DNA of 63,186 nt, from positions 1 through 63,186 of the forward strand of contig BDTG01000013.1 in the NCBI GenBank assembly GCA_002897695.1. Reading direction: 5' to 3'. Every line of letters starts with the position of its first letter. Position 1 is the stretch's first letter. This stretch comes from a bacterium BMS3Abin14. GTDB taxonomy: Bacteria > BMS3Abin14. A program made the translations under genes and the position numbers. Shown here piece by piece: positions 59,735-62,387 of the stretch. The notes under the pieces are model-generated. The model saw only the letters and a program-made list of their open reading frames with translations. It was not told the origin of the DNA and searched no databases.

Positions 59735-59794
59735 TTGCGTCTCCTGTCCCGACCCCCTGATCTATGATCTTATTTATGAGATCGCAAGATCCTC

Positions 59795-59822
59795 TTGACA
59801 AGCACTAATTTTAGTGTAATTA
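59795..59822 (+). promoter_or_regulatory. Sigma-70-like promoter (TTGACA -16 bp- TAATTA, with upstream TG) driving the low-GC island genes
   Basis: Consensus -35, AT-rich -10, and a GGAGG RBS before 59874. Confidence 0.45.
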
Positions 59823-59873
59823 TGTTACATATAGCTTAGTAAGAGAATCATGGTATGTTAGGAGGTATTAATT

Positions 59874-60497
59874 ATGGCACCAGTAATTAGAATCTCAGAT
59901 GTAATTTACAAACGTTTGGAAGCTTATGCTAGAGGCTTTGATGCTCCGAATAATGTCATTGAGCGACTAATCGACTTCTATGAAACTCATCAAAAGGATT
60001 CAAAGAAATCTATCTCTACTTCAACTCTTACTAAATCAAGCATTGAAGCCGCCACGAGTTTTAACAGAAACATAAGAAAGCCTAGAGACCCAAAGAAAGA
60101 GAAGGAACTAAAGAAGGCGGTTGGCAAAAGATTAAATTGGGGTGATTTTAAGCTCATTTCAAATAGCATTCTGGATTTTCATAATTCACCAACAAAAGTT
60201 CTTTGTAAGTATTCCAGCTATTCGGCAGAGCAAAACAGATGGTTTTGGGGTGTATCTCAGAAATATTGGTCAGAATGGAATGATGATTTTTACTTGGCTC
60301 TTTTGATGGAAAACGAGAATCAGGACGGTTACTCGTTTCTATTATTAGAACCCAAGGAAGCATCATATTTATTTACAAGGTGTAGCGAAAGTAACGGTGA
60401 GAAGAAAATAAACCTACGATTCTATAAGTCTGATGGACGGCTTCTCTTGCAGGAGTGGCAAGAACATGATGTGATGAAAAAGATTAAGGAAGTATAA
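59874..60497 (+). CDS. Hypothetical protein with an N-terminal ribbon-helix-helix (CopG/Arc-like) motif and an unknown ~130-aa C-terminal domain
   Basis: VIRISDVIYKRLEAYARGFDAPNNVIERLIDFYE fits an RHH beta-alpha-alpha pattern. Low-GC gene. Confidence 0.45.
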   Translation: MAPVIRISDVIYKRLEAYARGFDAPNNVIERLIDFYETHQKDSKKSISTSTLTKSSIEAATSFNRNIRKPRDPKKEKELKKAVGKRLNWGDFKLISNSILDFHNSPTKVLCKYSSYSAEQNRWFWGVSQKYWSEWNDDFYLALLMENENQDGYSFLLLEPKEASYLFTRCSESNGEKKINLRFYKSDGRLLLQEWQEHDVMKKIKEV

Positions 60498-60579
60498 AAT
60501 GCTTAGTTCATAATAGCAGTATAATCAGAATGCAACGTTTATATGAGCGTCTAACCAAATGGGCTTGGGAGGGGATCAG

Positions 60580-60900
60580 ATGAAAGCTAAGGCATTTTTG
60601 TTCGTATTTATGTTAACTTTTTTGCTAATGGCATGTGCCACCGGCGAGAAAATCACTCGGCTGAATCCTGGTATGTCTAAACAAAAAGTGGAGAGTGTTC
60701 TCGGCAAACCTGATGGATACTCTGCACCGGCTGATGGCTACGAAGTTTATAAATACACAAATAGGCTCATTTCAGGGTGGTCTTGGGACAGAGCTGATTT
60801 TAATGTGATCTTCAAAGATGGCAAAGTACAGGAGTATGGGGCTGGTGAAGTCAGGACGAAGCAAGGCGGCGTTAACACCATTTTGTTCATTTCCCCATAG
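60580..60900 (+). CDS. Lipoprotein with a BamE/SmpA_OmlA-like domain
   Basis: Lipobox LLMAC and LNPGMSKQKVESVLGKPDG. GGGAGGGG RBS. Confidence 0.55.
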   Translation: MKAKAFLFVFMLTFLLMACATGEKITRLNPGMSKQKVESVLGKPDGYSAPADGYEVYKYTNRLISGWSWDRADFNVIFKDGKVQEYGAGEVRTKQGGVNTILFISP

Positions 60901-60940
60901 CAATTACGGACGGACGAAACCCAAGTTCTGAGGAATATAA

Positions 60941-61741
60941 ATGTTTGAGGAAATGACCGATAAAGCATTGCGTCTCAAGGAGCTAGATTTACTGATCGTT
61001 AAAGCAATATCTACTTTCGATACGAAGAGTTTTGCCAAATATGTTGTTGAATTTAACGACGCAAAAAAAAGCATTCGCAGCTATGCTCTAGAACACCCTC
61101 TCCTAAACATACAGGGGATCGAAGATCCTAAGGCCTGTTTCATTATTCAAAAAGTCATGTCTGGTGAGCCTTTTGCGGTTGAGAAGGCTATGTCTGATAG
61201 CGAGATTACGGAATTCCTCAAAGGTGAACTCGATGACAATGATATAGAAAATCTTGCCTCAGATTTGTTCTATTCTTGGTTCAGTCATTATGAATACATA
61301 CAAGGTATTTATGAGATAGGCGCTTTGACGATATCTTGCAGCAAAATACCTGAAAATCTTTCGAAGTTTGTGAATGAAGCTCGTGACTGCTATGCTTTTC
61401 AGCAATTCAATGCGGTGTTTTCTCTGTGTCGCACCATCCTTGAAATCAGCATTAAGGATGTCGCAACTACCCGTAAGATCCTACCAGCAGATAATCGAGA
61501 TATCAGCTACCTGACATCTCGATCGCCCGAACTCTATGATCTAATCAATCAACTATGCGATCGGTATACTATTTTTAAAACTTTACGGGGTCAACTTCAT
61601 GAAATTAGAAGAAAGACAAACTCATTGATTCACGGAAGCCGTTCAGTGAAGAAACAGGAAGCCAGTGAGATGTTAAAGAAGACCCTTTTAGCCGTCCATC
61701 GGCTTTATGAACTTGAATCCAAGAGGCAAGGCACGACATAA
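60941..61741 (+). CDS. Hypothetical protein with a C-terminal DUF4145/HEPN-like domain (Rx6H: RRKTNSLIH) and an unknown N-terminal domain; possible Abi-like defence protein
   Basis: C-terminus FSLCRTILEISIKDV...LHEIRRKTNSLIHGS resembles the DUF4145 pattern. Low-GC gene. Confidence 0.45.
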   Translation: MFEEMTDKALRLKELDLLIVKAISTFDTKSFAKYVVEFNDAKKSIRSYALEHPLLNIQGIEDPKACFIIQKVMSGEPFAVEKAMSDSEITEFLKGELDDNDIENLASDLFYSWFSHYEYIQGIYEIGALTISCSKIPENLSKFVNEARDCYAFQQFNAVFSLCRTILEISIKDVATTRKILPADNRDISYLTSRSPELYDLINQLCDRYTIFKTLRGQLHEIRRKTNSLIHGSRSVKKQEASEMLKKTLLAVHRLYELESKRQGTT

Positions 61742-61941
61742 AAAAAAGCGGCATAACCAATGAACCTTTCCACCTTAAAACTGCCGCCAACCTGTCCAAC
61801 CAATGGGGTCCACCTCTTTCTATTGTTAATAATTGGCAGTCGCCTGTGAAATTGACCTGTTCAGAATGTGGTAACAAGATTGACAACAAGGATGTAAAAA
61901 TCTGTCCAGTATGCAATGTGAATTTCTAAAAGGGGGTTTTT

Positions 61942-62148
61942 ATGAAACGGATTGGGATGATCGGTCTAGTATTCGTTGGATTCGTTGCAGGAATACTTCT
62001 CGTTAATACCTATAGCGGGAGGATAAGTATCGCAAAGGCAGAAAATGTAGCGAACACATCTGAACAAGATGCATATAAATTAGCTAACATGACCCGACCG
62101 TACCCCTTTAGGTACCCTCCGACGGGCTCGGAGGAGCGCATCATTTGA
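61942..62148 (+). CDS. Small predicted membrane protein (68 aa), hypothetical
   Basis: Single TM helix. GGGGG-rich RBS region. Weak. Confidence 0.3.
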   Translation: MKRIGMIGLVFVGFVAGILLVNTYSGRISIAKAENVANTSEQDAYKLANMTRPYPFRYPPTGSEERII

Positions 62149-62387
62149 TTAATCCATGGGCGGTTTCATGGGAGGTTTTCGGGAATTTGGCAATGGAAAG
62201 ATCAGTGGACCTGACATGAGCAAGCATGAACTTCGAGCGCCCCTTCCCTCGACCAAGCTCCTTTCCCCTCGGCAGGCTCGGGACAGGCGACAAGCTCAAG
62301 GCAGGCGGGACAGGCCCTCCGACGCGCTTCGCTTGCTCAGGATTCTAAAGAGTGCTCGTGACCGTGGCCAGATTTAATGTAGTCCCT

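Follow-up and report, generated by a model that had tools for sequence, protein, structure and literature searches.

A low-GC islet of bacterium BMS3Abin14 is probably a mosaic of independently mobile single-gene cassettes

Introduction

DUF4145 domains belong to the HEPN superfamily (PMC3710099), and the DUF4145 domain of RAZR has been shown to be an RNase, with catalytic residues R146 and H154 in R-x7-H spacing (PMC13017515). NhoI and Eco15I are modification-dependent enzymes of the BisI family and relatives of PvuII (PMC11347163), and Ltp of TP-J34 is an exclusion lipoprotein whose gene lies in the lysogeny module beside int (PMC3952083). These are among the closest described counterparts of the proteins encoded in a small islet of low guanine-cytosine (GC) content, which we studied in a 63,186-nucleotide (nt) stretch of bacterium BMS3Abin14 (assembly GCA_002897695.1, contig BDTG01000013.1, positions 1 to 63,186; hereafter the window, meaning the whole stretch of DNA analysed). 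The islet carries three co-oriented genes, here termed A, B and C, followed by a smaller open reading frame (ORF), D.

An original prediction, made from the letters of the window, proposed that A, B and C form one defence or abortive-infection module. Our own reading, to which we assign a probability of about 0.6, is that the islet is a mosaic, pieced together from single-gene cassettes that were acquired horizontally and move independently, and not a multi-component system. The data behind this reading are the composition of the islet, the folds and motifs of its proteins, the bounds of the gene-A cassette, the lack of co-occurrence of the three families, and the prophage context of B relatives. 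The genes constitute an ordinary stack, separately acquired and of kinds found in phage-defence regions, sitting in a hypervariable spot between a ParE/Phd toxin-antitoxin (TA) pair and the end of an IS21 element.

Results

A, B and C occur together only in copies of one locus

Neighbourhoods were sampled for each family: C was represented by 23 loci from reference genomes and 5 metagenome contexts, A by 18 loci from metagenomes and 5 further contexts, and B by 15 contexts. The loci are numbered with the prefix L, and their six-frame ORFs were searched with hidden Markov models (HMMs) for families A and C and with phmmer for B and D. L001-L008, copies of the locus studied here, were the only loci with the trio or with any pair of A, B and C, the sole partial exception being L050, where a weak C-family match and an A-family gene are 3.5 kb apart. 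None of the independent loci (about 30 for C, 20 for A and 15 for B) contained the partners, and no B relative in the collected B loci stood beside an A-family or C-family gene. Homologues of A at 83 %, 68 % and 49-63 % identity each stand alone, the first of them, whose metagenome sample also yielded the source contig, being flanked by an Xre/MbcA-like gene and an aminotransferase gene. Likewise, C homologues at 71 %, 65 % and 28-40 % identity each stand alone; the 71 %-identical one, without A or B nearby, has an HNH gene on one side and NTase_sub_bind and PIN7 genes on the other, and the genes upstream of C relatives are a mixture (HNH, group II intron reverse transcriptase, kinase, deacetylases, SWIB-DnaJ, DUF4252). 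Exact copies of A and C were recovered from the same locus only, in a few metagenome contigs, some labelled marine metagenome. The co-occurrence elsewhere by which the three-gene module was to be judged was thus not found; since the trio is absent from the sampled loci beyond its own, the multi-gene reading is unsupported, and the three-gene system was rejected.

The islet is a real, foreign patch of low GC

The GC fraction of the islet is 0.399, against a mean of 0.560 (standard deviation 0.019, minimum 0.507) in the other segments of 2.4 kb (n = 574; z = -8.4) and a whole-window average of 55-56 %; the predicted drop from ~60 % to ~38 % was therefore real, if slightly overstated, the measured values being 56 % and 40 %. 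The left edge is sharp, GC falling from 0.50 to 0.35 between 59700 and 59750, and on the right GC rises again between ~62050 and ~62200. The patch is real and foreign. By gene, GC amounts to 0.37 in A, 0.45 in B and 0.40 in C.

The layout described in the original prediction was confirmed, including the co-orientation of the genes (BMS3Abin14_00677 to 00679), whose reading frames are intact, a sigma-70-like site (TTGACA-17-(TG)AATTAT, 59795-59823) returned by the promoter scan, stretches resembling ribosome-binding sites (RBSs), and tiny ORFs after C. Purine-rich, Shine-Dalgarno-like stretches precede the starts of A, B, C and D in the forms AGGAGG, GGGAGGGG, GAGGAA and GGGGG. For B, the 106-amino-acid (aa) start was chosen because its homologues measure 103-106 aa and because GGGAGGGG precedes 60580. 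Terminator prediction gave no terminator-like site between the islet genes, and the 40-nt spacer between B and C contains neither a predicted promoter nor a predicted terminator; a perfect TATAAT stands ahead of B at 60519-60524. All features are listed in Table 1.

Table 1. Coordinates of the islet, its genes and its surroundings in the window.
Feature	Positions	Strand	Basis or remarks
Low-GC horizontally acquired islet	59755-62150	no strand	GC contrast with the rest of the window
Gene-A cassette (promoter, putative operator, RBS, gene)	59791-60513	+	bounds from nucleotide homology
Promoter and putative operator of A	59795-59840	+	consensus scan 10/12, extended -10
Gene A	59874-60497	+	207-aa ORF
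Gene B	60580-60900	+	106 aa; alternative start at 60559 gives 113 aa
Gene C	60941-61741	+	266-aa ORF
27-aa mini-ORF MKLTCSECGNKIDNKDVKICPVCNVNF	61846-61929	+	GTG start without clear RBS; status uncertain
Gene D	61942-62148	+	68 aa, hydrophobic N-terminus, purine-rich AAAGGGGG before the ATG
Repeats bordering the islet on the left	59640-59734	no strand	repeat search
ParE/Phd-YefM type II TA pair	58961-59586	-	divergent from the islet; Pfam
Right-hand context (GIY-YIG remnant, IS21 terminal repeats, truncated IstB at the contig end)	62606-63172	-	Pfam and repeats

Gene A is a cassette with its own regulatory region

By blastn, L061 and L062 match exactly the segment taken as the gene-A cassette, at 85 % nucleotide identity, with an A homologue of 83 % amino-acid identity and unrelated flanks; in L061 the homology begins at the -35 box and stops 16 nt past the A stop codon. 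The promoter consists of TTGACA (59795-59800) and AATTAT (59818-59823), accompanied by the palindrome CACTAAttTTAGTG at 59803-59816, degenerate tandem repeats of the GTTACA type (59814-59830), and GCTTAGT (59834-59840) as a distal half-site. In nine A-family genes from unrelated contexts, TTG(A/C)CA is followed about 16 nt later by GTGTTACAtTGTTACA over the -10, with flanking aACTAAa/tTTAGt half-sites and then an AGGAGG RBS, and the upstream alignment of A-family genes shows 18 invariant columns and 68 % mean identity. We read the GTTACA repeats as the putative operator of A and infer that A would be an autonomous, self-contained and autorepressed cassette.

A profile search of 1.84 billion representative proteins returned 390 relatives, and no relative of solved structure was found with the A profile by sequence. 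An alignment of 39 relatives resolves the protein into an N-terminal module (residues ~1-45), a variable K/S-rich linker and a C-terminal domain (~70-207). The N-terminal module, examined for a ribbon-helix-helix (RHH) fold, gave matches that all stay below threshold (DUF7557, E 0.01; VapB_antitox, E 0.07), together with a match to the N-terminus of the SepA family (E 1.6e-7, 31 bits, below the cut-off of 110), and in other proteins Pfam revealed it only as weak DUF7557 matches. In the AlphaFold2 monomer model, residues 1-8 are extended and residues 9-19 and 25-43 form helices, with a predicted local distance difference test score of ~60-66. The module is therefore best described as compatible with an RHH fold, and the repeat array over the -10 would fit A as a DNA-binding autoregulator.

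The C-terminal domain, called an unknown 130-aa domain in the original prediction, indeed has no Pfam match, but its PD-(D/E)XK nuclease-type fold had been missed. Fold comparison gave values of 7.9 for I-Ssp6803I, 7.8 for MepB, 7.4 for NhoI, 6.9 for PvuII, 6.5 for Hjc, 6.3 for the N-domain of Eco15I and 6.2 for DpnI. With PvuII, the BisI-family enzymes NhoI and Eco15I, I-Ssp6803I and MepB, A shares the small size and the fold, at a sequence identity of only 5-15 %; unlike them, it lacks a clear 'PD' and '(D/E/Q)xK' in the hairpin strands, has no methyltransferase partner, and adds an RHH-like N-terminus and its own putative operator. In the family, E76 of the first core helix is nearly invariant and an acidic residue usually precedes the strand at 139-146; as read from the alignment, the next strand has no conserved (D/E/Q)xK, and the conserved K177-K178 fall in a later strand. 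Furthermore, the domain also occurs alone (~140-160 aa), C-terminal to Mrr_N, HSDR_N and Swt1-type HEPN (HEPN_Swt1) domains, and, in one fusion, N-terminal to EVE and a McrB-like AAA_5 ATPase (fusion proteins P0410, P0322, P0297/P0301 and P0302/P0305). From these architectures it looks like a recurrent module of restriction and conflict systems.

Two loci of the A family have arrangements of their own. In L040 (758-1836), two A-family genes stand in tandem, the second cut by the contig end; in L014 (183-5741), a 53 %-identical A is divergent from an MmeI/Eco57I-type methyltransferase gene, a T5orf172-ResIII helicase gene and a separate gene for a 233-aa DUF4145 protein, so that this restriction-type cluster holds a DUF4145 protein different from C. 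The ORFs of 157-158 aa downstream of A homologues in L044, L045 and L063 had no family matches.

Gene B encodes a BamE-domain lipoprotein with relatives in phage lysogeny modules

As had been proposed, B is BamE-like: it matches Pfam BamE (PF04355) with 25.9 bits over a cut-off of 23.2. It also matches phrog_3135 (E 3e-7) and carries the lipobox LMAC, whose Cys19 is invariant in 26 homologues; the family comprises more than 130 clusters of ~105-aa proteins. Superinfection-exclusion genes usually sit after CI-type repressors or before integrases. B homologues were found on ten viral contigs of IMG/VR, most of them 37-43 kb long, within the lysogeny module: in six of the ten, the homologue lies directly 3' of a CI-type/HTH repressor gene (HTH_3 with Peptidase_S24, or phrog_4, in L073, L075, L076 and L077; Peptidase_S24 only in L078; HTH/Cro-like without S24 in L082), and in two it lies directly 5' of a Phage_integrase gene. 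Non-viral relatives neighbour MazE-PIN, MNT-HepT, CAP12-type TIR, SIR2_2 and AAA_13 genes.

Like the lipoproteins of the Ltp type, B is small, and eight of its ten viral-contig homologues are placed as such lipoproteins are in the lysogeny module, a likeness of position; unlike Ltp, it has a BamE/SmpA-OmlA domain, its named relatives are Gram-negative, and no prophage surrounds it in the window. With BamE itself, B shares the domain above threshold, the lipobox cysteine and a similar size, but its family populates variable, defence-rich or prophage contexts and not a housekeeping locus, and B lies in a foreign islet. B is thus a BamE-domain protein that is not demonstrably a BamE orthologue, its contexts arguing against a housekeeping BamE. 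By analogy, we infer that it is an envelope protein of prophage type, plausibly acting in superinfection exclusion.

Three loci contain B homologues ~82 % identical to each other (L057, 4001-5632; L064, 1531-2564; L072, 2564-3418). In the first two, the homologue is followed by a gene for a 232-233-aa R[HN]AxAH protein and then by a second lipoprotein gene; in L072 the second lipoprotein gene follows straight away. TIR, SIR2_2, MNT-HepT and PIN genes lie near these lipoprotein genes, and the site beside them looks like an insertion hotspot. Separately, a gene for a 135-aa protein right after the B homologue of L058 (2792-3199) shares the FWGV..KY...Y..LL.N core of the A C-terminal domain (hhalign E 1.6e-4, probability 51 %); the A-family HMM misses it.

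Gene C encodes a HEPN-fold protein, probably of DUF4145 type

C belongs to a family of at least 154 relatives of ~250-270 aa, composed of a conserved all-helical N-terminal domain (residues 1 to ~135) and a DUF4145-type HEPN domain (~140-265). C has a four-helix HEPN fold; for the DUF4145 likeness that had been proposed, the score against Pfam DUF4145 (PF13643) falls just under threshold (22.3 bits, cut-off 23.1, E 1.4e-4) and the match spans positions 2-85 of the 88 in the profile. Precomputed PF13643 matches exist for two family members, P0035 and P0040, P0012 is named 'DUF4145 domain-containing protein' in one source, and the HEPN half of C matches phrog_1305. Neither the C profile, searched by sequence for solved structures, nor Foldseek against PDB returned a significant relative, and no RAZR-like entry appeared in the latter.

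Across the family, at identities of 28-71 %, W113, F153, L162, R164, E168 and H231 are invariant (H231 in 44 of 44 members), and a YSWFSHxEY motif at residues 111-119 is nearly so. HEPN catalytic motifs take the form Rx4-6H. The Rx6H motif that had been noted is present as R224-x6-H231, and R223-x7-H231 is present too, the R-x7-H spacing being the one conserved in C's own clade. The family splits cleanly into an 'R..TN..IHG' and a 'Y..LS..LHG' clade, with R164, E168 and H231 invariant in both; this suggests two catalytic configurations or a non-catalytic role of that arginine.

C resembles RAZR (PD-T7-4) in being encoded by a single gene and in combining a DUF4145-type HEPN domain with R223-x7-H231. 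It differs in its N-terminus, which in RAZR is a Cys4 zinc ribbon and in C (residues 1-135) is all-helical, without a Cys4 motif and with YSWFSHxEY, and half of the C family lacks the arginine. PADLOC-DB v2 contains a PD-T7-4 model, which C did not match at E <= 1. From its likeness to RAZR, C may act as a solo HEPN effector, its activity being regulated via the N-terminal domain.

No conserved partner of C emerged from an all-versus-all BLAST of the neighbours at 24 loci, which gave TPR-repeat noise only, and Pfam assigned unrelated functions to 20 genes upstream of C relatives. A signal peptide or lipobox was found in about 5 of 19 upstream neighbours, which by our estimate is close to background, and a lipoprotein-C-family link was rejected. 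In L016 and L017 (4551-5981), from two metagenome-assembled genomes of Desulfobacteraceae/Deltaproteobacteria, 20 nt separate the end of a group II intron reverse transcriptase/maturase gene from the 65 %-identical C homologue that follows it.

Downstream ORFs and surroundings of the islet

The ORF list shows three ORFs 3' of C: one of 29 aa, a mini-ORF of 27 aa with the pattern CxxC...CxxC, and D, of 68 aa. The mini-ORF was not found elsewhere; its two CxxC pairs resemble a zinc ribbon and stand just 3' of a HEPN gene, and RAZR fuses a zinc ribbon to DUF4145. Its position beside C may be due to chance. D had no family match in the domain, PADLOC and phrog searches made, and its phmmer homologues are restricted to copies of this locus.

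Of the context that had been described, the ParE and Phd/YefM genes (PF05016, E 2.8e-19; PF02604, E 2.6e-16), the GIY-YIG fragment (45 aa, E 8.7e-10) and the IS21 end (IstB_IS21 fragment, E 1.3e-31) held; the DUF429-like label for the ORF at 57997-58851 did not, this ORF having no Pfam match at E <= 1 and only a partial match to NCBIfam PRK14495 (28 bits, cut-off 596). The TA pair has a promoter-like site, TTGACA-18-TATATT, at 59615-59586 (scan 11/12). On the right, two tandem direct 20-nt repeats (CAaCGACAATTACACTTCCC) at 62760-62802, beside the truncated IstB gene, are probably where the IS21 element has its multi-repeat terminus, and several metagenome contigs end near this point. The GIY-YIG gene looks like a frameshifted paralogue remnant because 62380-62478, 3' of the fragment, matches 683-781, part of ORF 682-1167, at 79 % nucleotide identity.

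On the left, a 51-nt repeat (D1', 59640-59690) is identical to 57925-57975 and a 38-nt repeat (D2', 59697-59734) is 95 % identical to 57598-57635, where zero such matches are expected by chance. The repeat sites bracket the ORF at 57997-58851 and the ParE/Phd pair, and several metagenome contigs break inside the repeats. Their order is reversed between the sites, D2 and D1 being separated by 289 nt at one and D1 and D2 adjacent at the other. An integron cassette or attC origin was rejected, as 59630-59745 folds no better than shuffled sequences (z +0.97 and +1.09 by strand), the repeat search found no repeats between A, B and C, and B and C are a mere 40 nt apart. In L007, a variant contig obtained from a different sample, 57673 is followed directly by 58954, so that 1.28 kb with the ORF at 57997-58851 are missing. 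The locus is a hypervariable hotspot that ends in an IS21 copy.

A 52-nt segment (57873-57924) is 96 % identical to 27088-27139; each copy contains the beginning of a small ORF on the minus strand (57747-57923 and 27004-27183). The two ORFs share the peptide TESQKVHSxLFVLEDG, and neither has a Pfam match. No Rfam match to a structured RNA was obtained in 55000-63186 at E <= 0.1, and no tRNA that might serve as integration site lies near the islet.

Discussion

The islet shares with defence islands its low GC, TA genes, insertion-sequence and nuclease remnants, strain indels and stacked small immunity-type genes; it differs in being very small (2.4 kb) and in having no gene in a PADLOC v2 system. 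Under the reading as a mosaic of single-gene cassettes, autoregulation, exclusion, RNase activity and any phage phenotype are predictions of the following scheme. The RHH-like N-terminus of A would bind the tandem GTTACA repeats that cover the -10 of A and repress transcription from this promoter, and its PD-(D/E)XK-fold domain would be a DNA-directed module as in restriction enzymes, which may cut or only read DNA. B would be an exported BamE-domain lipoprotein, of a family carried in temperate-phage lysogeny modules, mediating superinfection exclusion at the envelope. C would be a latent RNase, restrained and triggered through its conserved helical N-terminal domain, acting as a one-gene, RAZR-like abortive-infection or toxin effector. 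Because no terminator is predicted between the genes, transcription from the A promoter may extend through B, C and D in this lineage, a coupling that would be a local accident of gene order.

Several points weigh against this reading. The neighbourhood sample comprises tens of loci, many of them on short contigs. The tight packing and co-orientation of the genes, with no internal terminator, may reflect one unit of inheritance or expression in this lineage. Compared with window positions 57277-61460, L007 is 93.5 % identical in the RACo flank and 99.9 % identical over ParE/Phd and A-B-C, and therefore TA pair and islet are possibly inherited as one unit; the identities suggest that they travel or recombine together in this lineage. 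L007 has a low coverage (3.8x) and could be chimeric; alternatively, it may record a recent exchange of the TA pair plus islet between strains. Regarding the proteins, A may not be a nuclease, because no evident D...(D/E/Q)xK lies in the expected strands; in the C family, R223 is found in 20 of the 44 members, all in C's clade, and the other 24 have tyrosine. PADLOC-DB v2 gave no significant match for A, B or C (none for A; for B and C only E 0.008-0.023 to Drt1a, Cas8g and Csx1/Csm6), and no relatives of A or C were present in phage, plasmid and IMG/VR collections (tblastn for phage and plasmid), so that a phage or plasmid origin of these two genes was rejected. Since the PADLOC and the phage and plasmid searches were empty, the candidate defence roles are drawn from fold, motif and neighbourhood only.

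The same observations invite an explanation without defence, in which a former prophage or integrative element left the islet behind as decaying cargo; A would then be just a transcription factor whose nuclease fold has degenerated, B a lipoprotein of the envelope, and C a helical scaffold without catalytic activity. The empty PADLOC search, the canonical PD-(D/E)XK triad that is not evident in A, and the loss of the HEPN arginine in half of the C family fit it, as do the pseudogenes and the IS21 end flanking the islet and the housekeeping neighbourhoods of many C-family genes (lipopolysaccharide genes, deacetylases, thioredoxin-reductase-like genes). We consider it unlikely, since the three ORFs are intact, have Shine-Dalgarno-like stretches and are identical in every copy of the locus from several metagenomes; the residues invariant in the C family at 28-71 % identity (W113, F153, L162, R164, E168, H231) imply selection on function; and the cis-regulatory region of A is conserved across contexts, its C-terminal domain being repeatedly fused to restriction-type modules.

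A further proposal is that B and C alone form a two-gene unit, in which the envelope lipoprotein would detect phage attack at the cell surface and act through a HEPN effector in the cytoplasm, A being an unrelated neighbour. The 40-nt spacing, without predicted promoter or terminator, speaks for it, as does the finding that in 19 of 22 cases the gene just 5' of a C-family gene is read in the same direction; in addition, in L057 and L064/L065 the B homologue is followed after 14 nt by the gene for the R[HN]AxAH protein, unrelated to C, which has a weak HEPN_RiboL-PSP match (E 0.003). Nevertheless, no C-family gene elsewhere adjoins a B-family gene, the exported share among upstream neighbours of C relatives is about that expected by chance, and because L072, of the same B subfamily, passes directly to the second lipoprotein gene with no HEPN gene, the HEPN-like gene of L057 seems to have been inserted between the genes for two lipoproteins. 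Variable regions of this kind often contain HEPN genes, so that two juxtapositions could be a coincidence, and signalling from an outer-membrane lipoprotein to a cytoplasmic RNase has no known mechanism. We give this proposal little credence.

Comparably tentative, as a long shot, is the idea that the A family constitutes an undescribed selfish cassette, that BamE-domain lipoproteins are envelope-sensing partners of interchangeable cytoplasmic HEPN effectors, or both. Judging from its sequence, the former could be a ~720-bp gene with promoter, tandem-repeat operator and RHH-fused PD-(D/E)XK domain, which by analogy could spread itself between unrelated chromosomal sites like a free-standing homing endonuclease gene, or behave like an autoregulated solitary restriction or addiction gene.

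Finally, a genuine three- or four-gene A-B-C(-D) defence or abortive-infection system, recent and confined to this lineage, is very improbable: the genes are tight and co-oriented behind one promoter-like site without a predicted internal terminator, each component has a defence-flavoured fold or context, and the block is 99.9 % conserved across two strains, but no co-occurrence is seen outside the locus though each family has tens to hundreds of members, the homology of the A cassette ends 16 nt after the stop codon, the TATAAT at 60519-60524 means that B could have its own promoter, the GC values of the individual genes fit separate origins, and PADLOC has no match. No rival to the reading as a mosaic of single-gene cassettes has positive comparative support beyond the two B-HEPN juxtapositions.

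The findings in the islet do not overturn current ideas. They show that an attractive 'three-gene defence operon' is a stack of unrelated genes, a caution for guilt by adjacency drawn from one genome, and they give three uncharacterised families a first structural and contextual description. The C-terminal domain of A represents a PD-(D/E)XK fold recurring in McrB-like, Mrr-like, HsdR-N-like and Swt1-HEPN fusions, and the B family provides candidates for superinfection exclusion in Gram-negative hosts. The C family, formed by ~260-aa solo proteins with a new conserved N-terminal domain, adds further candidate one-gene HEPN effectors beyond RAZR.

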